A stretch of 35,006 nucleotides of DNA from a virus (lineage: Duplodnaviria; Heunggongvirae; Uroviricota; Caudoviricetes), in the IMG/VR virus record IMGVR_UViG_2778261448_000009, positions 1-35,006 of that record; one strand, given 5' to 3'. Shown piece after piece: positions 8,089-35,006 of this stretch; position 1 is the first letter of the stretch, and the number at the start of each line of letters is the position of its first letter. Under the pieces are notes generated by a model, which saw only the letters and a list, made by a program, of their open reading frames with translations, ran no database searches and had not been told where the DNA came from. The translations under genes were made by a program, and so were the position numbers.

Positions 8089-9600
8089 ATGTTTAATCTT
8101 TTTCGACGCAAAAAGGCGGTAGAAACTCCAGTTAAAACTAATCACCGCCAGCAACAACAAAAAATCTTTATCGACAAACAAGTAGAAAAATTCCAGAAAG
8201 ATTTGTCTAAGCGTTCTTTGGGCTTAGTCGGTGATCGTATTGATGGATCACTTCAACAAGACACCATTACAGGAACCTTCAATAAGGCTCTCAAATCAAA
8301 CGGTAAGCGCCTTTATGATCAGGGTCGTACTCTGGCCTTAAACACTTCCGTAGGCAGTCGCTACACGCAATACATCACCGATATGGTGGTAGGTACTGGC
8401 CTAGATCCGAAGCCATCAATCGTTAAATCAAATGGCAAACTTGATAGCGCACTGAATAAGCAGATCGAGAATGCTTTCTGGAAGTGGGCGCAGAACGCTA
8501 AACGCTTCTCTCGCAATGGTCGCTTTAACTTCCGTGAACTGCTGGTAATGGCTGAACGTGAGCGCGTTATGGGTGGTGAGTGCTTCATCGTTTTAACCAA
8601 AGAAAACAATGAGTTAAATGTTTCCATCCTGTCTGCTGATAAGTGCGACTGGTCGCTAAACCGTGAAGTAAGCAAAGAACGTGCTATCTATCAGGGGATC
8701 GAGTATGACGTAGAAACAATGAAGCCAGTAGCATACTGGTTTCGTAAAATCAACCTACTGACTCAGACTTACACAGGTGATAACTATCGCGTAGATGCAT
8801 CGCAAGTATGCCATTATTATCAACCACTTACAGCCGAATCCCTGCGTGGTGTGACTGACTTCCTGCCAGTGATCAAGGATATCGCACATCAAGACGCATT
8901 CCGCGAAACTGCAATTATCCAGAAACGTATTGCGGCTAGTTCTATGGGCTTTATCGAACGTCCGAAAGATTCTGGTGACGATTTTGATACTGGTGAAGAG
9001 GATGAACAATATCAAGCGCCGGAAGTAGTACAGGATTTTGCACCTGGTACTATTCAGGAATTACCGGAAGGGGCAACGATCAAGAGCATCCAGGCGACGC
9101 AAAGCGGTGATGACTTCAATTCCTTTAACGATGCGATGTTTACTAGCGTATCAATGGGCTTAGGCGTGTTTAAACAGGGCTTAACTGGCGATACTAGCCA
9201 AATAAATTACAGCGCTGCACGCTACGGCGAATTACTTCAAAGAACGCGCGTTAAAGCACTGCAAAACAAATTGATTGAAACAGTGGTGTCGCCCATTTTC
9301 GAAGCATATCTACGCCATTATTCCGCGCGTGGTATTGTTCCGATTCGTATTACTGCAATTCCACATATTATCGATAATACAACTATTATTCGTCCGCGTT
9401 TTGAATCCGTCGATCCATTTAAAGACGTAAGCGCCGAGATTGCTTTAATTGATAAAGGACTTAAATCACGTACTGCCGTTATTCTTGAACGTGGTGATGA
9501 TCCTGAAAAAGTATTCTCAGAGATTCAAGCCGAAAAGAGCGCACTAAATATTATCGTTAATGGCGAGGGTGAAGAAAAAAATTCCCCAGCCGATCCCTAA
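8089..9600 (+). CDS. portal protein, 503 aa
   Basis: Position immediately after terminase and before the protease-capsid gene; size typical of lambda-family portals; acidic C-terminal tail. Confidence 0.7.
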   Translation: MFNLFRRKKAVETPVKTNHRQQQQKIFIDKQVEKFQKDLSKRSLGLVGDRIDGSLQQDTITGTFNKALKSNGKRLYDQGRTLALNTSVGSRYTQYITDMVVGTGLDPKPSIVKSNGKLDSALNKQIENAFWKWAQNAKRFSRNGRFNFRELLVMAERERVMGGECFIVLTKENNELNVSILSADKCDWSLNREVSKERAIYQGIEYDVETMKPVAYWFRKINLLTQTYTGDNYRVDASQVCHYYQPLTAESLRGVTDFLPVIKDIAHQDAFRETAIIQKRIAASSMGFIERPKDSGDDFDTGEEDEQYQAPEVVQDFAPGTIQELPEGATIKSIQATQSGDDFNSFNDAMFTSVSMGLGVFKQGLTGDTSQINYSAARYGELLQRTRVKALQNKLIETVVSPIFEAYLRHYSARGIVPIRITAIPHIIDNTTIIRPRFESVDPFKDVSAEIALIDKGLKSRTAVILERGDDPEKVFSEIQAEKSALNIIVNGEGEEKNSPADP

Positions 9601-13428: not shown

Positions 13429-16400
13429 ATGCAATCAATCCAATTTAAACGCACACAGACGGCTGGTAAAAAGCCGACGCCGGAACAATTATCACAGGGT
13501 GAAATCGCCTTACAGTTGGCGGATCATGTGATTTACACCAAAGACAAAAATAATAACGTAGTCCAAATTAGTGTTTCTCCAGAAAAACACGCTGAACTGA
13601 ATACGAAAGTAGACACCAACAAGGTCAATACAGATAAAGTCATTTCAGCAAATAAAACCGAAGCCGCTAATAATCTGGCTAGTGCTAAAGCTGAACTGAA
13701 TCAGACTATCACTTCTACCCGTGATACTCTCAATGCTTCAATCACTGCTGGCGATACCGCAGCCAACAAACGAATTGATGCTTTGACTACCACAGTAGGT
13801 AACAATAAAACCGAAGCGGCTAACGCTCTGGCGGCTGCTAAGACTGAACTGAATCAGACTATTACTTCAACCCGCGATACTATCAACGCGACAATTAACA
13901 AGAACAAGACAGATATTAATGCGCGAGTTGATCAGACGAATACCAACGTTACCAACTTAACGAATACTGTCGCAGCAAATAAATCAGCAATAGAAAAGAC
14001 GGTAGCGGATAATAAGAAAGATGCGGACACGAAGATCACCAATCTTACTAGTACGGTCTCTGCGAATAAGACGGCCATTGAAAGAACTGTTGCAAATAAC
14101 AAGGCCAGTGCCGATGCCGCAATTGCCGCAGCTAATCAGCGAATTGATTCGATTGAAGGTAGTGCCGATGCTGCTTACATCAAGAAGAATACCAACACTT
14201 ACCATCACGGCTATCTGTTAACCAAAACAGCTAACTATTTGGAAGACCAGACAGCGAGAGATCTTAACTACTTTGGTGCTTTCCGTACCAATGGTCAAGA
14301 TGGACTCATGGATCTAACTCTTAACGTTCCTCACTCTGCCGGCAAAGCGCACGGTCGCGGATTTACTTTCCGTTATGCGTCTGGTGGATCTCGTGTTGAA
14401 ACCTATGGTTTTGATAGAGAAGGACAGAAGAACTTTAGCTATAAGATGTATCACGAAGGTGATAAGCCGACTCCTGGCGAGATTGGTGCATACACCAAAG
14501 CCGAAGTTGATAAGATGTTTGTTAAAAACGTCGTTATGTCTGTTCCCAATTCTAGCGAAAACGTATCTGCATATTTCAAATTGGCAACCGCAACAATTCC
14601 ACAAAACGGGCGTAGTGTGTTTTTCCGTATTCATGGTGGTAATGGTTACAACGTTACGGCATATGACCAAGTTGATGTAGTAGAAATTCTTCTCCGTAGT
14701 GGTAACGATAGACCTAAAGGTCTTAACGTAATTGCATACCGTAGAAATACAAACAAAGATTTTGAGGTATTTGCTGTCAATACTTCCGGTGATAACTATG
14801 ATATCTACGTGAAATATCAGCGTTATACCGATAACGTTATTGTCGAATATGGGAAATCTGTTTATGTAAGTTTGACGGTTTATGATACGCCGGAAGCCAC
14901 GTTAATTAAACCTTCCGTTGGTGTTATCGGTGGTCGCAACGTAACTCTTTTTAACACAGAAAATAAACGTGGTGTGTTGAGTTTTGACGATAACACACAA
15001 AATAGTTATGATATTGTTCACTTGAGTAATGATAGGGGTACTGGTCGGAAATATATTCGTAAATTCCGTAGCAACTATAACGAAATGATCTGGCATGAGA
15101 CGGTTCAAGGTTCTACTTATCGACTCGCCACGGGTAGTACAGATTCTCAGGAGATTCTATCCGTTGAATCTAGTAGCTCTATTGCTGGGACTCATAAAGG
15201 TAATATTCTTTCTGGTCGAATGATGTTGGGTGGCGGTAGTAATGTTATTACCTTGCGGCGTCCTGCTGGTCAATCCAACCATATTGCGTTTCAAGATAAT
15301 CGGACTGGAGATATTACCCGTCAAGGGTGGATCGGTTATGGTAATGCTGATACTAACGTTTTTGAATGGTATAGTGATGTAGGTGGTACTTCTATTCGTC
15401 ACCACATAGACGGACAGATCGAATTTCAGACAGGTAACACAAAACGAGTTTATACTAACGCTCAATTCATCTCAATGAATAGCGACGCCTACCGCATGAT
15501 CTACGGTAATTATGGTGCATTCTGGCGTAATGACGGCAATAAAGTTTATCTTCTTTCTACTGCCGAAAATGATAAATTGGGCGGATGGAATGGAAACAGA
15601 CCGTTCATTTACGATTTGACTAACGGTAAAGTTACTTTAGGCGGTGATGGTAACGAAGGTGCATTAGTTCTTGAAAGAGATAGCCGTGCTGCCCGTTTTA
15701 GCAACAATGTATTCTTAGAAAAAGGACTGCTTACTTTCTCTGCTGGTGGAAATCAGTCGATGGATTCTTTTACGATTAACCATTGGGGGAATAGTAATGC
15801 CAATCGATATAACGTTTTGCAATTCCAGGACACTAGCGGAACTCACTTTACTACAGAACGTAACGGTACTGGTGGCTTACTTGCTCATTTCCGAGGGGAT
15901 TTAACTACCGAAGGAAAATTAACGTGGGGCAAAAATACAGCTACTTCTAGCTTTAATATCCGTGCGTGGGGTGCTGATGCTCGTAAACAAGTATTCGAAT
16001 GTGCGGACGAAAGCGGTTGGCACTGGTACACACAACGACCGGGCGGTCCGGGTACTGAATTAATCGAGTTTGCCATCAACGGTACTGTTAAACCTAAAGC
16101 AATTCACACTGGCGGTAATATCACGCTTAACGGTGCTGATATTGAGTTTCGTCGCAGTGGCAATAAGCATTTGTGGTTTAGAGATCCAAATGGCTTAGAA
16201 TTGGGTCTGTTGTACTGCGATGATGCTGGCGTTATGCGTATGCGCGGTGAGAAACAAACCGAAGTCTGGAAATTCGGCGGTAAGATGATTCACCTTGAAA
16301 CGGGCACTGTATCCGGTGGCGGTAATGGTCTTATTCGTGGTAGCGTTGCTGGTGGTAGTTGGGCTAGCTGGCGTGATCGTGCTTCTGGTATTCAGGTCGA

Positions 16401-16965
16401 TTGTCAACAATCAACCGATTCCGCTCATAACGTATGGAAAGCAACCCATCAAGGTAAATATCATATCGCAGCAATGGGTGTACATGTTCCTAGCGGTACT
16501 ATCGGTAACGCTACAGTTAAACTTCATGTTCATGACGCTGGTTTTGACTTTAACGCTGCTGGTGACTTTACCGCAGGTCGTAACGGTTCGTTTAACGATG
16601 TTTACATTCGCTCTGACTCCCGTTTGAAGATTAACAAGGAAGAATTACAGGACGGTGCATTAGAGAAAGTAAACTCCCTGAAAGTATACTCTTACGATAA
16701 AGTTAAATCTCTTTCCGATGACACAGTGATTAAACGCGAAGTAGGTATTATTGCTCAGGATCTGGAAAAAGTATTACCGGAAGCAGTAGGTATTCAATCC
16801 ACCGAAGATCCAGAACATCCAGAAGCAATCAAGACTATTTCTAACTCTGCTGTCAATGCTTTAATCATCAAAGCAATGCAGGAAATGACCGCTAAGTTTG
16901 ATGCTATGGCTAAAGAACTTGCCGAAACTAAAGCTGAATTAGCCGAACTGAAAGCAACTAAATAA
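13429..16965 (+). CDS. side tail fibre, 1178 aa, with C-terminal intramolecular chaperone (peptidase S74-like) domain
   Basis: N-terminus MQSIQFKRTQTAGKKPTPEQLSQGEIALQLADHVIY; tandem about 50-aa repeats (NKTEAAN-LA-AK-ELNQTITSTRDT) at nt about 13650-13900; C-terminal SDSRLKINKEELQDG...VGIIAQDLEKVLPEAV followed by a coiled coil, as in self-cleaving fibre chaperone domains. Confidence 0.75.
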   Translation: MQSIQFKRTQTAGKKPTPEQLSQGEIALQLADHVIYTKDKNNNVVQISVSPEKHAELNTKVDTNKVNTDKVISANKTEAANNLASAKAELNQTITSTRDTLNASITAGDTAANKRIDALTTTVGNNKTEAANALAAAKTELNQTITSTRDTINATINKNKTDINARVDQTNTNVTNLTNTVAANKSAIEKTVADNKKDADTKITNLTSTVSANKTAIERTVANNKASADAAIAAANQRIDSIEGSADAAYIKKNTNTYHHGYLLTKTANYLEDQTARDLNYFGAFRTNGQDGLMDLTLNVPHSAGKAHGRGFTFRYASGGSRVETYGFDREGQKNFSYKMYHEGDKPTPGEIGAYTKAEVDKMFVKNVVMSVPNSSENVSAYFKLATATIPQNGRSVFFRIHGGNGYNVTAYDQVDVVEILLRSGNDRPKGLNVIAYRRNTNKDFEVFAVNTSGDNYDIYVKYQRYTDNVIVEYGKSVYVSLTVYDTPEATLIKPSVGVIGGRNVTLFNTENKRGVLSFDDNTQNSYDIVHLSNDRGTGRKYIRKFRSNYNEMIWHETVQGSTYRLATGSTDSQEILSVESSSSIAGTHKGNILSGRMMLGGGSNVITLRRPAGQSNHIAFQDNRTGDITRQGWIGYGNADTNVFEWYSDVGGTSIRHHIDGQIEFQTGNTKRVYTNAQFISMNSDAYRMIYGNYGAFWRNDGNKVYLLSTAENDKLGGWNGNRPFIYDLTNGKVTLGGDGNEGALVLERDSRAARFSNNVFLEKGLLTFSAGGNQSMDSFTINHWGNSNANRYNVLQFQDTSGTHFTTERNGTGGLLAHFRGDLTTEGKLTWGKNTATSSFNIRAWGADARKQVFECADESGWHWYTQRPGGPGTELIEFAINGTVKPKAIHTGGNITLNGADIEFRRSGNKHLWFRDPNGLELGLLYCDDAGVMRMRGEKQTEVWKFGGKMIHLETGTVSGGGNGLIRGSVAGGSWASWRDRASGIQVDCQQSTDSAHNVWKATHQGKYHIAAMGVHVPSGTIGNATVKLHVHDAGFDFNAAGDFTAGRNGSFNDVYIRSDSRLKINKEELQDGALEKVNSLKVYSYDKVKSLSDDTVIKREVGIIAQDLEKVLPEAVGIQSTEDPEHPEAIKTISNSAVNALIIKAMQEMTAKFDAMAKELAETKAELAELKATK

Positions 16966-17663: not shown

Positions 17664-18170
17664 ATGGCGAATGTCGTTAATAAGCCTGGCTGGGTCGGGT
17701 CATCTGCTGTTTCTGTAACTGGTCAACGATGGATGAGCGCAGCAATGAACGCATTAAAGGTTAGTCGCCCAGCTAACATGAGTGCGATGTGTGGTCGTGG
17801 TATGGATACGGTTGTAGCTACTGCTGCGTGGACTACTTCATTGGGTAATAACTGGGGTGTAACTGCTTCAAACTATCCAGTAACTGACATGCGCGGTAAA
17901 GGATCTATGGAGAACCCCGAAAACGTGGGCGTAGGGCGTCTGATTGGCGTTATCGTTGGTCAATTCAATGGTGGTACTCCTACTATGGCTGTATATCTCC
18001 AGAACGGTAGAGCGGGGAATATAACCGTTAATTTGGGTGGTGCTGCTGTCACTGTTCCTTATAACAGTATGCAAAGTGGTTTTCATTACTATTGGTTAAG
18101 CAATCCTCCGGCTGCTTTCCTAACAAATATTAAGAAGGCTGGCACTAAGCAGACTTTGAAAATCTCTTAA
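17664..18170 (+). CDS. hypothetical structural protein, 168 aa
   Basis: RBS GGAG before the ATG; sits between the tube and chaperone genes; Gly/Thr/Val-rich, beta-rich composition; no family recognised. Confidence 0.4.
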   Translation: MANVVNKPGWVGSSAVSVTGQRWMSAAMNALKVSRPANMSAMCGRGMDTVVATAAWTTSLGNNWGVTASNYPVTDMRGKGSMENPENVGVGRLIGVIVGQFNGGTPTMAVYLQNGRAGNITVNLGGAAVTVPYNSMQSGFHYYWLSNPPAAFLTNIKKAGTKQTLKIS

Positions 18171-28810: not shown

Positions 28811-30301
28811 TTATATAGCAATTGTTTTAGTTGCATAGCTGAACTTGTCGGTTAGATAATAGCGGATTCTCTCAAGTGCATGTTTTACCGCATAATTTTT
28901 ATGCTTGACTTTTCCGTTACGACCGAATATACACAGATGATCTATAAGATCCCAGACCGTTGCAATATCCTTAGAACCATGTTTACGCAATGCACGACCG
29001 ATACTCTGACGAACGATAGTTGATTCCTTCACGGGATGACCGAAAATAACATGGTGCAAATTCTTAATTGAAACACCAGTAGAGAAAACACCATAGGAAG
29101 CAACACAAATGATCCCTGTTTCCCCTTCCGCTAATTTCTTAAATTCATCACGTTCTTCTGTCTTAACTCCACCGTCAATATAATAAACCTTGTCGTGTAC
29201 CTTCTGTAACGCGTCATACATAAGTTTTCCGTGCTTAGTATTGCGGAACATCAGGAATACGTTTTCGCCCTTCTTAGCGAGTTTTAGCGCCAAATTACAA
29301 GCAAACTTATTACGTCGTGGGTTAGACGTAATATACTTGATCTCTTCCGCATATTCTCTACCCTTAACCGCGCTACATTCCTCATCGGTATAACGAAGGA
29401 AAAGACAGTTGATTTTCAGTTTCGTCACTTGACCTTCTTCCATCAGGCGGTCAATACTCACGATCTTAGAAATATCACCGAAAAGACCGACATACTGTAA
29501 AAGATGGCATTTTGATTCTTTAGGGGAACCAGTCATGCCGATTTTAAACTGGCAATGATTCATTCCGTTGATGATATTGGTAATATTTTTGGCACTAGCC
29601 TTATGTGATTCATCAACTATCAACATTCCATATTGTCGGAACCATTCAGGAGGCATCTTGCAAGCTGATTGCCATGTTGAAACAGTGATTAGCCTATCTC
29701 CCGGATGTTTCCCGCTACCACTCATCATTGTATGAATTGCTTCATAAGGGAATAACCGATAATCGATGAAATCATCCCTCATTTGAACCACTAGCGATGT
29801 AGTAGGGACAATGATTAACACTTTTCCGGTGTAGTTCTCTAAGTACCAACGAGACAGCATACAAGCAATCAATGACTTACCCGCACTGGTAGGAAGAACC
29901 AGCATTCTACGGCGATTATGAATACCCTGAAAGACTGCCTCCCTTTGATACCAGTAAGGATTGATTTTATTGGAACCGGAATACACTTCTAGGGAATCAA
30001 TCCATTCATTAATCGCGTCTTTGGTTACATCTTCCTTCTCAAGCAATCGCGGGTCAATCCAGACTGAATAGCCCATATTTTTAACGAAGACACCCAACGT
30101 TTTTAATAGTCCAATTGGTAGGGTATTTTCATGCGTAAACAGTCTTATTCGTCCATCCCAGCCGGAATACTTGTAGCGGGGGCTAAACCTAGCCCCTTCA
30201 ACCTCAAACGAGAAATAATCCCTTAATTCCATTCCGATAGAAGGAGAGCAATCAACCTTAACGAAACTGTAATCTTGAAAATGAATTTTAATATCTTGCA
30301 T
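28811..30301 (-). CDS. uvsW: UvsW-like SF2 DNA helicase (T4 UvsW homolog), about 496 aa
   Basis: Near-collinear with T4 UvsW as I recall it: MQDIKIHFQDYSFVKVDC..., PYWYQREAVFQGIHNRRRMLVLPTSAGKS (Walker A), LIIVPTTSL, MLIVDESH (motif II), YIDGGV, ICVASYGVFSTGVSIKNLHHV, GRALRKHGSKDIATVWDLID. I place the start at the ATG at 30301-30299, overlapping the upstream stop as TAATG. Confidence 0.85.
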   Translation of the reverse strand: MQDIKIHFQDYSFVKVDCSPSIGMELRDYFSFEVEGARFSPRYKYSGWDGRIRLFTHENTLPIGLLKTLGVFVKNMGYSVWIDPRLLEKEDVTKDAINEWIDSLEVYSGSNKINPYWYQREAVFQGIHNRRRMLVLPTSAGKSLIACMLSRWYLENYTGKVLIIVPTTSLVVQMRDDFIDYRLFPYEAIHTMMSGSGKHPGDRLITVSTWQSACKMPPEWFRQYGMLIVDESHKASAKNITNIINGMNHCQFKIGMTGSPKESKCHLLQYVGLFGDISKIVSIDRLMEEGQVTKLKINCLFLRYTDEECSAVKGREYAEEIKYITSNPRRNKFACNLALKLAKKGENVFLMFRNTKHGKLMYDALQKVHDKVYYIDGGVKTEERDEFKKLAEGETGIICVASYGVFSTGVSIKNLHHVIFGHPVKESTIVRQSIGRALRKHGSKDIATVWDLIDHLCIFGRNGKVKHKNYAVKHALERIRYYLTDKFSYATKTIAI

Positions 30302-30870
30302 TAGTTCCACTCCACACTTGCAATATTCTTTATATTGTTTAGTGATTTATTGCAGTAGTGGAATGTTTCAGTTTTGCCGTATTCAATCCCGCCTATACCC
30401 ACATCCAGTAATCTCTTTATTGCTCTTTCAGTGGCTAAAGCATGTTTCATTGATGGCATTTCACCAGCAAAGACAATATCAAAGTTATGACCGGGATTGC
30501 GTACACCCAGATTAATGCGTCGCTTGATGATTGACTTTGTAACACCAAATTTACCAATATCCCCTGATTTCATTACATAGAGATAAGGCACACCCGCTTT
30601 ATATTGAAAGTAATCACTTTTGAGACATGCACAGCGTTTACCTTCATTAAGCAGGTTGGTAGCTGATTTGTCGGCTCTATTGCCGCATCGGGTACATGTA
30701 AGAGCAATTCTTGAATGAAGCCCTTTAAACTCACCCAGAAAGCCATGAAAGACTAACGGTAAGTCCTTCTCTTTGATGTGAGTCAGAATGCGTTGTTCTA
30801 ATGCCGATGGAGTTACAGCACGGGAGGATTTAGGAGTAAAAACAATATCTTTAGCCATTACTGGAATCAT
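30301..30870 (-). CDS. T5orf172-domain (GIY-YIG-like) protein with N-terminal zinc-ribbon-like CxxC pairs, 189 aa
   Basis: PYLYVMKSGDIGKFGVTKSIIKRRINLG fits the T5orf172 signature as I recall it; CTRCGN...CAC cysteine pairs; GAGG before the ATG; translationally coupled to the helicase gene. Confidence 0.55.
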   Translation of the reverse strand: MIPVMAKDIVFTPKSSRAVTPSALEQRILTHIKEKDLPLVFHGFLGEFKGLHSRIALTCTRCGNRADKSATNLLNEGKRCACLKSDYFQYKAGVPYLYVMKSGDIGKFGVTKSIIKRRINLGVRNPGHNFDIVFAGEMPSMKHALATERAIKRLLDVGIGGIEYGKTETFHYCNKSLNNIKNIASVEWN

Positions 30871-31023
30871 ATAGACCTCACTTTTTAACTTATAGGCATA
30901 ACCTCAATATGGTTGGTTTGGGATTTAGGGTCGCGTATTATACACATCCAGATAGAGAATGCAATAGTAAGACAATTTTCTCTAATAAATAGTAGTGATC
31001 TTATTATTTTAGAGGAAACTACT

Positions 31024-32199
31024 ATGAAACTTGCTTACGCTGCCGAAATTCCTTTTGTTAAGAAAACTCGCGGTTTATCGCCGGAAGAGTACCAACAACG
31101 AATCATCGCTAAACTGGAACCTGCTTTCGTATTTGGTGGATTTATCCTACCGTGGAAGGGTAATCACACTTACTTTCGAATCTACAATTTAGATACACAA
31201 GAATATAAGGACTACAAATTACGCAAACTGGAAGATACTAACGGGGGGGAGTTATTCCAGACTGAAAAGGCTGTATGGTTGAAAATGGAATCTCGTTGTA
31301 ATGAGAAGGGAAAGAAATTCCTCGGATGGCAAGGAGAATGGAAAGGGCGAAATAGAACGAAAGCCCGTGTTTTGTGCCCTGAACACAATCAAATCATGAC
31401 GCCATCTCTATTACATGCTCTCAAAGATGATTTCGATTTTGATTGCAAAATCTGTATGGCTGAAAAATCCCAACGGGTAAGAAGTGGCAAGACTTTTGAT
31501 GAAGTTATTAAGGACAAAGAGACAATCATCAATGCACGTTGCGAGAGTACGCCTTACACCTTCAAAGGATTCATCATAAACACCCCACACCTAAAGGATG
31601 TTAAATTTAAAACCTATTGCAAGACACATAACCACGAATGGGAATCTCATTTAAGATGTGCTGATTCTTTCACTTGTCCGCTTTGCATTAAAGACCAACT
31701 GGTGCAACTGTCTAACCGGACTTATCAGGGTAAGGCTAGTTTCTACATTCAATTATTAGATGACAAATTTATTAAATTTGGAATCACTACCCGGAAACCA
31801 GAAGAACGAATGAGAGAGCAAACCAGAAAGAGCAACTTCACTCACCGCTTAATCTTTACTCATGAGTTTGAGGATGGTTGGAAAGCCGTTGATTTAGAGC
31901 ATGAAGTAAAACAACGCTTCAAGACTCATGCAGCACCCTACAAAGATTTCAAGGATGGATGGTCGGAAACTCTGACTATTGATGAGTTACCACACTTACA
32001 GCAACTGGTTTATGACTACCTAACCAATCAACCGGACGAGGCTAATATGTGGGTATCCCCGAAAGATGTATTTGATGACGATACATTCAAGCTACATACT
32101 CACTTCTACGGCATCAATAAACCGGAATTTTTCTGTATTGATGACGACAGTCCTGATTTAATGGATGAATACTTTAATACTCTCTTAGATGCTGCCTAA
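31024..32199 (+). CDS. zinc-finger-rich protein with C-terminal T5orf172-like domain, about 391 aa
   Basis: I place the start at the ATG at 31024 after GAGGAA. Several CxxC/CxxH pairs (CPEHNQ, CKIC, CKTHNHEW, CPLC); C-terminal FYIQLLDDKFIKFGITTRKPEERMRE resembles T5orf172/GIY-YIG. Confidence 0.5.
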   Translation: MKLAYAAEIPFVKKTRGLSPEEYQQRIIAKLEPAFVFGGFILPWKGNHTYFRIYNLDTQEYKDYKLRKLEDTNGGELFQTEKAVWLKMESRCNEKGKKFLGWQGEWKGRNRTKARVLCPEHNQIMTPSLLHALKDDFDFDCKICMAEKSQRVRSGKTFDEVIKDKETIINARCESTPYTFKGFIINTPHLKDVKFKTYCKTHNHEWESHLRCADSFTCPLCIKDQLVQLSNRTYQGKASFYIQLLDDKFIKFGITTRKPEERMREQTRKSNFTHRLIFTHEFEDGWKAVDLEHEVKQRFKTHAAPYKDFKDGWSETLTIDELPHLQQLVYDYLTNQPDEANMWVSPKDVFDDDTFKLHTHFYGINKPEFFCIDDDSPDLMDEYFNTLLDAA

Positions 32200-32272: not shown

Positions 32273-33952
32273 TTAAATTCCAAATTCCTGTAATGGACCT
32301 GGTATTTCCTCTTCTGGTTTCCAGTTCTTATCTGTCAGCATGTCTAAACATGGATGCAGAACAAGCCCGTTGCTCTCCAGAATCTGCCTATCATTGATAG
32401 TCTTCAAATCGACAAATATTTGTCCTTTCCTCGTTCCTCTTGAATTTTCTATTACAACTCTCTGGGTCTTTCCATCGATGTATTCCAGTACAAACAAGTT
32501 TTTGTTTCTGTCAATCCTGCTACACCCGATCCGCTTTAGAGCTTGCTTAATCTTAAACCGGACCTTTAGTCGTTCCTCGTTGTAAACATCTTCTAAATCA
32601 AATTCTGCGAGCTTCTCCCAGCCTTGAGAGTCAACAGAATACATTTCCTCTTCTGCCATCTTGATCTGATTGTAGAGTGTTTCACGCTCGCTATTGAGGG
32701 TAGTAATCTGATCGGCTAGCTCCTTCGTTGCTCCTGTCATAGCAGAAAGGGCAATCAGGTTATCAATCTTGCGTGATATTTCATCAACCTGTACTTTCAA
32801 CGCCGGAACCGGATTAGCCTTGTCCTCAGCAATCCAGATTTTATCAGCCAGCAATTGCAATACAGCTTTCTCTAATTGATCACCTCGAAAACTCCAGTTT
32901 GGATGCTCGCAATCAAGTCTACGTGAACGGGTCGCATCACATGTATAACGATACTGGTCAGAACGTTTGTTCGTTCCCTTCACTTTAACCATAGCGCAAC
33001 CGCAATGATCACATTTCAATAGGCCAATACCACTAAGCAGGGGGATCGGTTTAACTTCTTCCTTGTCTCCAAAGTTCCATGCTCTAGCACCAATATTTTT
33101 CTTAAGGTGATAGAACGTAGGGTCATCAATAACACGAGGGTAATAATCCTTTAACTCATAGTTAACGCCATCTACAGATATTTCCTTGATACCAATCAAA
33201 GCGCGGGTATGAAACAACCTTTCAACCATTGCCCGTGACCATTTTGAATGCTTCTTGTTGCTTACTGCTGGTGGTGGTGCATATGTCTCGTTAAGGTGAT
33301 CCAGTATTTCGGCGGTTGAACGTCCATTCTTCCGTAATTCCACAATCTCCTGAACAACAGGGAAGTATGTAGGATGAGGCAACACATAACCGGAAGTGGT
33401 ATCAGTCCACCACATATTCTTTCCAACTTCCTCGATTGCCACTGCCGGATTCTGGGGATTTTCTTGATGGGCTTTAATCTTAATCAGTGCGCTTGAGTTA
33501 GTACGATTGCGCTTAGTCTGACTTTCCTCATTACCACGGATGAATAAAAGGATGGAGAACATCAGGTCCATCGGATTAGCGGTAACAGTATCCAGCGAGT
33601 AGATCTTGTTATCCATGCCAGTAACAATGGTTATTCCCCTACGGATGATTGAAAGGAATAACTCCTGCGCACTGACAATATCGGCACGGGATAAGCGGTC
33701 CAAGTTTTCAATGAATAGCCAGCTACCAACAGGAACGGATCTACCAATTGCATCAAGGAAACGAGATAGCGCCCCTGTTTTAGAGTTAGCACCCTTAAAC
33801 GCAGATACACCCAGATCCTGATAATCATTTACCAGTTCAAGGTCATACTTTGCCGCAATCTCTCTCGCCATCCTGATTTGTCGTTCATAACTCGAACCAT
33901 CACTCTGACGCATAGACGAGAAGCGAATATACGAATATAGTTTAGTTTTCAT
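32273..33952 (-). CDS. large serine recombinase (candidate integrase), about 559 aa
   Basis: N-terminal resolvase-type catalytic region YSYIRFSSMRQSDGSSYERQ with candidate nucleophile Ser and RLSR; Cys cluster CDHCGCAMVKVKG...YRYTCD (zinc ribbon); coiled-coil region; length typical of large serine recombinases. I place the start at the ATG at 33952; the track begins at an upstream TTG. Confidence 0.8.
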   Translation of the reverse strand: MKTKLYSYIRFSSMRQSDGSSYERQIRMAREIAAKYDLELVNDYQDLGVSAFKGANSKTGALSRFLDAIGRSVPVGSWLFIENLDRLSRADIVSAQELFLSIIRRGITIVTGMDNKIYSLDTVTANPMDLMFSILLFIRGNEESQTKRNRTNSSALIKIKAHQENPQNPAVAIEEVGKNMWWTDTTSGYVLPHPTYFPVVQEIVELRKNGRSTAEILDHLNETYAPPPAVSNKKHSKWSRAMVERLFHTRALIGIKEISVDGVNYELKDYYPRVIDDPTFYHLKKNIGARAWNFGDKEEVKPIPLLSGIGLLKCDHCGCAMVKVKGTNKRSDQYRYTCDATRSRRLDCEHPNWSFRGDQLEKAVLQLLADKIWIAEDKANPVPALKVQVDEISRKIDNLIALSAMTGATKELADQITTLNSERETLYNQIKMAEEEMYSVDSQGWEKLAEFDLEDVYNEERLKVRFKIKQALKRIGCSRIDRNKNLFVLEYIDGKTQRVVIENSRGTRKGQIFVDLKTINDRQILESNGLVLHPCLDMLTDKNWKPEEEIPGPLQEFGI

Positions 33953-33967
33953 ACCATTTCCAAACAA

Positions 33968-34003
33968 AAACGCCCCTACCGTGTATTATAACGATAGGGG
34001 CTA
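33968..34003 (-). terminator. imperfect dyad CCCCTACCG-N10-CGATAGGGG between the recombinase start and the upstream gene; terminator or recombination-site candidate
   Basis: 9-bp arms with one mismatch around the AT core TGTATTATAA; on the minus strand it is followed by CGTTTTTG. Confidence 0.4.
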
Positions 34004-34015
34004 GGTGATTAAAGA

Positions 34016-34429
34016 TTAAAGAATTTCACGGCAGCTAATCAGGGTATAAGATGTATCACCTTTTTTAACATCAAATATAGGAGAACCATCAATAGAATGC
34101 AGATATTTGATGTAGGATTTACCATCTTCGGAACCATAATATTCTTCTTTCTCGTTCTTATCTTCTTTCAGTTTCGGGCTTTTGATTGTCTTATCATATA
34201 CCGGGTCGTTGAAAGCAAATTGACTATTATCATCATTCACTCGAACTTTCACACCGATAAAACCACGGTATTTGCCAGACGGTGCATGATAATAACGGTC
34301 GCCATCACTCAGGTAGCGTGTATCATCTCCTTTATGTTCGAAGTAGGAATTACACACATAATAGGTATTAGCATTTGCAGCACCAACCAAACCCAGAGCA
34401 AGAACAACACCCGCGATAATCTTTTTCAT
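34016..34429 (-). CDS. secreted protein with cleavable signal peptide, 137 aa (moron-like cargo)
   Basis: MKKIIAGVVLALGLVGAANA followed by a polar mature region with two Cys (near the start and the end); no lipobox; RBS GAGGAAA. Confidence 0.65.
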   Translation of the reverse strand: MKKIIAGVVLALGLVGAANANTYYVCNSYFEHKGDDTRYLSDGDRYYHAPSGKYRGFIGVKVRVNDDNSQFAFNDPVYDKTIKSPKLKEDKNEKEEYYGSEDGKSYIKYLHSIDGSPIFDVKKGDTSYTLISCREIL

Positions 34430-34695: not shown

Positions 34696-34725
34696 CATTT
34701 AAAAAGCGGTGGGAATTGCACCCAC
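34696..34725 (-). terminator. rho-independent terminator for the 34737-35006 gene (coordinates within 1 nt)
   Basis: Minus strand reads GGTGGG-loop-CCCACC followed by GCTTTTT. Confidence 0.55.
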
Positions 34726-34736
34726 CAAATTAGAAA

Positions 34737-35006
34737 TTACTTCTTGCTAATAAACTCTTTGTAGATAAAATCTAAGACTTCCTTTAACTTCTTATCGGTG
34801 CCAATCATTGCCGGAAGTTCTTCTTTAATATCGCGAGGAAGATACACATTACCTTTCCAGAACAAGCAACCACATTGAGCAATCGAATAGCTGAACATCC
34901 ATTCACAATCTTGTTCTATCTCCCAGAATCTAACCTGCTCATCTTCGAGTTGAAGTTCGATTCCACGGCGGCGAGCATAGTTATGGATTGCTTTGGTAAT
35001 GTTCAT
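34737..35006 (-). CDS. hypothetical protein, 89 aa if the ATG at the window edge is the true start; may be N-terminally truncated by the window
   Basis: ORF runs to the last base of the window; its minus-strand terminator lies just downstream. Confidence 0.45.
   Translation of the reverse strand: MNITKAIHNYARRRGIELQLEDEQVRFWEIEQDCEWMFSYSIAQCGCLFWKGNVYLPRDIKEELPAMIGTDKKLKEVLDFIYKEFISKK

Follow-up and report, generated by a model that had tools for sequence, protein, structure and literature searches.

A probable ycdX-targeting serine integrase of an Escherichia coli siphovirus prophage, with predicted attachment sites and a terminator-like hairpin beside the gene

When a phage genome encodes a large serine recombinase next to an imperfect DNA dyad, the obvious question is whether the dyad is the site at which the enzyme acts and, if it is not, where that site lies. 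The question is posed here by int, a gene for a 559-amino-acid (aa) serine recombinase in a 35,006-nucleotide (nt) stretch of viral DNA (IMG/VR record IMGVR_UViG_2778261448_000009, Caudoviricetes; this whole stretch is referred to as the window), where it is accompanied by such a dyad and by a gene for a small secreted protein. An earlier note, made from the sequence of the window, had taken the recombinase to indicate a temperate phage that integrates by means of a serine integrase, or else a large inversion or resolution system, and had put the dyad forward as a candidate attachment site that would also fit the terminator of the neighboring gene. The evidence presented below makes it highly probable that a temperate ∼38-kb siphovirus of Escherichia and Shigella uses the 559-aa protein as its integrase, that this enzyme recombines a phage attP with an attB within the host gene ycdX, and that the hairpin encoded by the dyad is a terminator.

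The recombinase and its junctions in ycdX

The open reading frame (ORF) of int extends on the minus strand from a TTG (32273–33967); the ATG at 33952, from which the 559 residues are counted, is the likely start. A Pfam scan of the full-length protein returns Recombinase (PF07508, 1.4e-8) and Zn_ribbon_recom (PF13408, 1.1e-10), with the Resolvase domain absent from the listing. The latter (PF00239, 1.3e-14, residues 6–139) is found when the N-terminal 148 aa are scanned alone, and it is also present in precomputed annotations. Against PHROGs, the protein matches phrog_95, annotated as integrase, at 1.3e-62. In an alignment of 15 homologues, with identity down to 31%, residues R10, S12, D85, R86, and R89 are invariant, as are C314, C317, C338, and C348, the four Cys residues of the zinc ribbon. 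The profile derived from this alignment matches PhiC31, TP901-1, and other serine integrases in the PDB, and a phmmer search of PDB sequences with the single int sequence retrieves no chain at E ≤ 1e-3. Weak coiled-coil-type matches are seen to APG6_N (residues 402–454, E = 0.098) and to a designed coiled coil (profile positions 380–442). Because of these domains, the invariant catalytic and Cys residues, and the profile match to PhiC31 and TP901-1, the protein is, as judged by sequence, a bona fide though divergent large serine recombinase (LSR), and it is predicted to be catalytically active. The resolvase-type N-terminus and the zinc-ribbon cysteines reported in the earlier note are thus both present.

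The window encodes a siphovirus, with genes for a large terminase, portal, fused protease/capsid, tape measure, distal tail, tail-tip, and tail-fiber proteins, an M15 peptidase, a UvsW-like helicase, and a Rha/Ant-type regulator. A protein identical to int was found in E. coli and Shigella assemblies, on 24 contigs read, and the 10 places shown are all beside csgDEFG-ycdZ-ycdY. Of 5426 complete E. coli genomes, 57 contain a match to the int region (∼1%, a figure that counts both the ycdX integrase type and the hicB type described in the next section), and all of the matches are chromosomal. In each ycdX-type copy examined, a siphovirus prophage of ∼38 kb interrupts ycdX at codon 134 and carries int at its right end. 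In UTME-12 (NZ_CP157095.1), for example, the 5′ and 3′ fragments of ycdX are 38 kb apart with the prophage between them; the gene is uninterrupted in K-12, which therefore provides the empty site. Position 1 of the window corresponds to a gene end that is 1.9 kb inward of attL, and position 35006, in the start codon of the last prophage gene, maps to position 47017 of the UTME-12 copy (locus L011), 43–44 bp short of the attR crossover. Since both ends map within the integrated copy, the window is a prophage cut at gene boundaries, and neither junction is inside it. Homologues of int from Salmonella, with 71–77% identity, are found at the same ycdX codon, and so the targeting of ycdX either predates the Escherichia/Salmonella split or was maintained across both lineages. 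The temperate lifestyle suggested earlier is borne out by these data: the search of host genomes that had been recommended, and that might have turned up no integrated copies anywhere, decisively returned copies with defined junctions, and copies flanked by a split host gene are common.

Comparison of the junctions with the empty site allows the attachment sites to be reconstructed. The K-12 attB reads ...AAGCCATCCCGGA-AA-TCCCAAATATGAAAT... (in a shorter form, ...CATCCCGGA-AA-TCCCAAATATG...), where AA represents nucleotides 400–401 of ycdX, in codon 134. The attL sequence follows attB through ...GGAAA and continues as CCCGAACGTAGTCAACCCCCAATAAC..., while attR reads ...GTGTTATTGTGGGTACATGATATTAGG(G/C) and then follows attB from AATCCC.... 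The AA dinucleotide is the only sequence common to attL, attR, and the K-12 empty site, which is the 2-bp crossover signature of a serine integrase. The reconstructed attP, GTGTTATTGTGGGTACATGATATTAGG(G/C)-AA-CCCGAACGTAGTCAACCCCCAATAACAC, is an imperfect dyad of 28 + 2 + 28 bp that is symmetric about the AA at 20 of 28 positions (binomial chance ∼1e-6); the attB sites are weakly symmetric, at 8–9 of 28. The attP core is ∼1.1 kb upstream of int and 43–44 bp beyond the end of the window, with the P arm at window-equivalent positions 35021–35048 and the AA crossover at 35049–35050, both of them outside the window; it is bordered on one side by the left-end gene's terminator and on the other by the ribosome-binding site of an 89-aa gene. 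The expectation in the earlier note that the attachment site would be a short imperfect dyad near int therefore describes the true attP, but the sequence chosen there was the wrong one, the right one being outside the window. Twelve E. coli ycdX prophages share one attR junction, and four of four share one attL junction. Phage-side conservation at attL ends 26 bp from the core, and because the sequences of the four prophages diverge beyond this point, the outer edge of attP is placed there.

These sites suggest a conventional route of integration, in which the integrase would recombine the phage attP with the attB inside ycdX, a gene that encodes a zinc phosphatase. Cleavage and strand exchange would occur at the central AA, the sole identity required between attP and attB, with the exact position of cleavage within the dinucleotide being presumed, and YcdX would be truncated after residue 133. 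Excision would be expected to need a recombination directionality factor and to leave the predicted circle junction ...ATGATATTAGG(G/C)AACCCGAACGTAGTC.... Solved serine integrases suggest, by analogy, that the half-sites would be read by the recombinase domain and zinc ribbon, a role that is supported by the natural variation described in the following section.

Target choice in the hicB sister lineage

A search with the left junction revealed related prophages in hicB, seven of which were examined, all with the AA core. The crossover AA in these prophages corresponds to hicB nucleotides 304–305, in codon 102 within the helix-turn-helix (HTH) region, and the hicB core, GGCAAACCTAAA, resembles the ycdX core, GGAAATCCCAAA. 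The hicB-type and ycdX-type integrases are distinguished by 32 fixed substitutions, 28 of which fall in residues 196–351, that is, in the recombinase and zinc-ribbon domains (RD-ZD), and several hicB-type integrases are identical to that of the window over catalytic residues 41–160. The RD-ZD haplotype predicts the target in 12 ycdX and seven hicB loci; the haplotype of the catalytic domain has no such predictive value. In complete genomes the DNA of the RD-ZD segment shows a bimodal distribution, with 26 genomes at 96.8% identity or above and 29 at 88–89.6%. UTME-9 (NZ_CP157110.1; loci L014/L022 and L029) is a double lysogen, in which one prophage resides in hicB and the other in ycdX, each with the matching integrase type; BS74R-D (NZ_CP063332.1) also carries two copies. 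The attP P arm can be identical in the two phage types.

Target choice tracks the DNA-binding domains, in keeping with structural work on serine integrases, which predicts that these domains set it. One scenario is that the block of ∼28 substitutions in residues 196–351 retargeted the integrase from an ancestral site at ycdX codon 134, the site shared with Salmonella, to the HTH region of hicB; we regard the case for and against such a switch as evenly balanced. If the ycdX and hicB enzymes are truly orthogonal, they would represent a natural minimal specificity-swap pair and would provide a map of the attB-reading residues in serine integrases.

Several further features of the junctions are worth recording. 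The P arm supplies an ATG that is in frame with the 3′ fragment of ycdX (positions 47048–47061 of the UTME-12 copy, just past the window end), and at attL both YcdX and HicB gain the same phage-encoded tail, NPNVVNPQ-stop (positions 9020–9050 of the UTME-12 locus). Both attB cores (L012, 3270–3300; L016, ∼2800–2830) read GGnAAnCCnAAA and encode Gly-(Asn/Lys)-Pro-Lys, and CC is present at positions 2–3 from the core in all eight half-sites. A 37.5-kb metagenome scaffold that was considered as a free genome was rejected, as it ends in hicB sequence and is a prophage.

The dyad beside int, competing readings, and the cargo genes

The imperfect dyad next to int is real and is present in a single copy in the window: at 33972–34001, the arms GCCCCTAcCG and CGaTAGGGGC flank a 10-nt AT-rich center. 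The minus-strand RNA forms a stem of 11 pairs, including 7 G-C pairs, and an 8-nt loop, followed by GUUUUUGUUU. The single imperfect position in the stem is a G-U pair on this strand as opposed to an A-C mismatch on the plus strand, and the U-tract occurs on the minus strand only. The minimum free energy is −21.6 kcal/mol (z = −3.5), and 1 of 200 shuffled sequences folds as well; a terminator scan finds 7 terminator-like sites in the region where 2.1 are expected. The hairpin begins 15 nt past the stop of the secreted-protein gene (34016), its U-tract ends 9 nt before the int ATG, and its upstream edge, 34001, is the exact position of a homology break with a sister prophage. In 13 sequences (the window and 12 prophages, with two cargo alleles) the stems are invariant, while one loop base (A/G) and the U-tract vary. 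Because of the strand asymmetry and the location 15 nt past a stop codon, the hairpin fits an RNA terminator and not a protein-binding dyad. We infer that it is the Rho-independent terminator of the cargo transcript, the alternative that the earlier note had mentioned and that is now favored. The hairpin would close a small cargo region composed of tiny membrane peptides and a secreted protein with an exchangeable mature domain, and it probably shields int from cargo transcription in the lysogen.

That the dyad (delimited as 33973–34000 in the earlier note) could still be the recombinase's own site, whether attP, an inversion site, or a resolution site, is suggested by its imperfect symmetry, its AT-rich center, its position adjoining the recombinase gene, its stability beyond chance, and its strict conservation in sister prophages. 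The dyad is, however, unlike the mapped attP arms, and in 19 of 19 E. coli prophages examined the int-side host junction is ∼1.1 kb further out, with the dyad unchanged and intact inside the element. Neither a second copy of the dyad nor the att arms are found within the window, and the sister prophages are collinear and free of inverted segments, which argues equally against the large inversion or resolution system that had been envisaged. When the G-U pair and T-run on the minus strand only and the placement after a stop codon are added, a role for the dyad in recombination becomes very hard to credit.

A different doubt concerns whether the element is alive, since a defective and vertically inherited remnant with a non-functional integrase could also display shared junctions if these descend from one or a few ancient insertions. 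Such a remnant would be consistent with the failure to find a free phage, a circular contig, or an intact attP in viral, metagenome, and genome collections, with the presence of IS1 in at least one copy of the prophage, and with the fact that no repressor or replication module was recognized in the examined part of the prophage. Against this, an intact int ORF that retains every catalytic and zinc-binding residue is seen throughout a 975-member cluster at 90% identity, and the terminase, portal, capsid, tape-measure, tail-tip, tail-fiber, and endolysin-like gene set is uninterrupted in the window. The distribution of the family is patchy, with hosts from pigs, humans, dogs, cats, a bullfrog, and river water and the great majority of E. 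coli genomes lacking the element; the cargo and nuclease modules vary from copy to copy; enzymes of 71–77% identity use the same ycdX codon in Salmonella; and UTME-9 carries two copies at two sites. We therefore consider a dead remnant unlikely. The existence of two targets might instead reflect one recombinase of relaxed specificity, for which ycdX and hicB are simply the two best sites in E. coli and not the targets of two enzyme variants. The common reading of the two attB cores, the P arms that can be identical, and a hicB prophage with a ycdX-type P′ arm (L015, see below) all point in that direction. Multi-targeting of this kind is nevertheless quite improbable given that target and RD-ZD haplotype agree without exception in the 19 loci examined, including mosaics that share a catalytic domain, that the two haplotypes are discrete in complete genomes, that each integrase type in the double lysogen is at its own site, and that no third target site was seen. 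A Pfam scan of int extended to E = 10 also shows no extra C-terminal domain (DUF4368) of the multi-targeting LSRs; Durrant et al. 2022 (PMC10083194) report the extra domain for 63% of LSRs in their main multi-targeting clade.

Some of the results weigh against the interpretation of int as an active, ycdX-specific integrase with a terminator at its side. An exact search for the reconstructed attP core gave 0 matches in each of the viral, metagenome, and genome contig collections, and since these collections yielded neither an excised nor a circular form with an intact attP, current mobility is deduced from distribution and not observed. Among deposited phages, megablast searches with the region and with 25 kb of the window identify no relative, the sole match being a tail-fiber gene shared with T4-like phages, and the best capsid match is only 43% identical, so that there is no close cultured phage. 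The RNA structure of the hairpin receives no support from covariation, as its stems never vary among the 13 sequences. The relationship of integrase type to attP is not one-to-one, because a hicB prophage (L013/L015, NZ_AP042682.1) carries the ycdX-typical P′ arm, CCCGAACGTAGTCAAC..., where the inner part of P′ in most hicB prophages differs and reads ACCTAAATGTTGTAAAC...; either both P′ arms are acceptable to the hicB-type enzyme or this prophage swapped its left end once integrated. Finally, the locus counts overstate the support for the link between haplotype and target, since prophages in related strains are not independent.

The features of the region are collected in Table 1. The secreted protein described in the earlier note is present, but its gene is upstream of int in transcription, both being on the minus strand, and not downstream as was stated. 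The protein starts with MKKIIAGVVLALGLVGAANA, with N as the next residue, which is a Sec-type signal peptide with an AXA site at its end. An 81-aa allele in sister prophages has the identical 20-aa signal peptide and an unrelated mature part. Homology with a sister prophage breaks between 34001 and 34371, the part that encodes the mature domain, because the gene has at least two alleles (137 and 81 aa) that share the signal peptide and the terminator. The mature domain of the 137-aa protein contains two invariant cysteines near its ends, and an AlphaFold2 model of the protein is an all-beta domain with a pLDDT of 87.7. Its homologues form only six clusters, all from E. coli, from Salmonella, or without a source name. 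There is no family match in Pfam, NCBIfam, PHROGs, or PADLOC, no tblastn match in phages, and no specific relative in structure searches; an MliC/PliC-type periplasmic lysozyme inhibitor was considered and set aside, being without a specific structural or sequence match. The data support the protein as a variable secreted moron. Its variability among sister prophages and its own terminator agree with the moron position assigned to it earlier, but neither exclusion, lysozyme inhibition, nor any other specific role is supported.

A consensus scan finds no promoter for the secreted-protein gene. On the minus strand, the hairpin loop (33978–33992) contains a perfect TATAAT ∼35 nt upstream of the int start codon; as an int promoter it is without an acceptable −35 element, and a promoter inside a terminator would be speculation. 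The two tiny hydrophobic ORFs of the variable cargo region almost abut each other, and the 41-aa ORF is also called in two sister prophages (L005 and L007). From their translations, they possibly encode small membrane peptides or toxins.

Table 1. Features at the int end of the window (positions are those of the window; the domain layout of int is approximate)
Feature	Position	Strand	Basis or remark
int, 559-aa large serine recombinase (integrase)	32273..33952	−	Pfam, PHROG, 15-sequence alignment, identical protein at prophage ends in E. coli chromosomes
int catalytic domain, residues 1–150	33503–33952	−	
int recombinase domain, residues 198–287	33092–33361	−	PF07508
int zinc ribbon, residues 310–368	32849–33025	−	PF13408
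int coiled-coil-like stretch, residues 380–455 (a C-terminal tail follows it)	32588–32815	−	
Putative intrinsic terminator of the secreted-protein gene	33962..34001 (stem-loop 33972–34001, U-tract 33962–33971)	−	Terminator scan, RNA fold; the dyad of the earlier note
137-aa secreted protein	34016..34429 (signal peptide 34370–34429, mature domain 34016–34369)	−	Translation, allele comparison
Tiny hydrophobic ORF, 41 aa	34475–34600	−	Translation; variable cargo region
Tiny hydrophobic ORF, 26 aa	34604–34684	−	Translation; variable cargo region
Terminator-like hairpin after the 89-aa gene	34707..34727	−	Terminator scan
89-aa gene (phrog_6147), first gene inside the prophage at the attR end	34737..35006	−	PHROG match; start codon is the last triplet of the window

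Elsewhere in the prophage (window 14212–16891 and 17664–18170), the distal long-tail-fiber gene is 75–90% identical at the nucleotide level to gp37 of the T4-like Krischvirus phages RB49, Phi1, and ECD7, and it is followed by a gp38-like adhesin ORF (phrog_1121). On the basis of the gp37 match, this temperate siphovirus prophage shares a receptor-binding module with lytic myoviruses. The UvsW-like helicase gene (28811–30310, minus strand) is followed by CapR/T5orf172 (GIY-YIG-type) nuclease-like ORFs at 30301–30870 (minus strand) and 30913–32199 (plus strand), and the block from 28811 to 32199 is kept, replaced, or missing among sister prophages, as expected of mobile nuclease genes. The UTME-12 prophage carries IS1 between its portal and capsid genes (L011, 20195–20892), and this copy is therefore probably defective.

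Significance and relation to known systems

The int protein is an uncharacterized member of a well-known enzyme class, and nothing about it is conceptually new. It belongs to an uncharacterized prophage lineage that is present in ∼1% of complete E. coli genomes, that has relatives in Shigella and Salmonella, and for which an attP/attB pair can be predicted precisely. Genome engineering can make good use of serine integrases that come from Gram-negative hosts and have defined sites, and the ycdX/hicB pair is a natural experiment through which the control of target choice by DNA-binding domains can be studied. For genome annotation, the insertion leaves lysogens with either an inactivated ycdX, a neighbor of the curli locus, or a HicB that has lost its DNA-binding end.

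We found no paper in the literature that ties a prophage or a serine recombinase to insertion in ycdX or hicB in E. coli. The attachment sites of int were rebuilt by the same approach that Durrant et al. 2022 (PMC10083194) applied to the E. coli LSRs that they tested, Ec03–Ec07, namely by comparison of attL and attR with empty E. coli sites. Each of Ec03–Ec07 differs from int in length and in N-terminal sequence, and neither the start of the int protein nor its att cores were found in the supplementary data searched, which include part of a table of 6,207 predictions.

The region can also be compared with other phage arrangements. The secreted-protein gene is moron-like in that it varies among collinear prophages, is followed by a strong intrinsic terminator, and is located at the prophage end next to int. 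Comparative genomics of lambdoid phages and HK97 established the moron as a gene that, with its own terminator, is found between conserved phage genes. Unlike in the classic moron, the unit of exchange here is only the part that encodes the mature domain, between a conserved signal peptide and the terminator. The closest homologues of int in deposited phages are the YbcK-like LSRs (YbcK of DLP12, Perceval, and 4A7) and those of the Burkholderia phages JC1, Bcep22, and Bcep176, with 27–31% identity over 80–94% of the length. The lambdoid YbcK-like homologues are situated in the middle of their genome records, whereas int is at the end of its prophage, beside the junction that it makes. Lambdoid phages with YbcK-like recombinases also carry a tyrosine integrase.

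A further comparison is with the serine integrases of PhiC31, Bxb1, TP901-1, and A118 (LI Int) and with SprA of SPbeta. As in those proteins, the domains of int are ordered as catalytic domain, recombinase domain, and zinc ribbon with a possible coiled-coil-like stretch, and the same catalytic Ser/Arg set is present. The attP of int is likewise an imperfect dyad of ∼55 bp, its attB is weakly symmetric, a non-palindromic 2-bp crossover is the only identity required, and the element inserts within a host coding sequence. The relation of int to PhiC31 and TP901-1 is a remote one that is reached by family profile only, and its host is Gram-negative (E. coli/Salmonella), as opposed to the Actinobacteria or Firmicutes that are the hosts of most of the enzymes studied.

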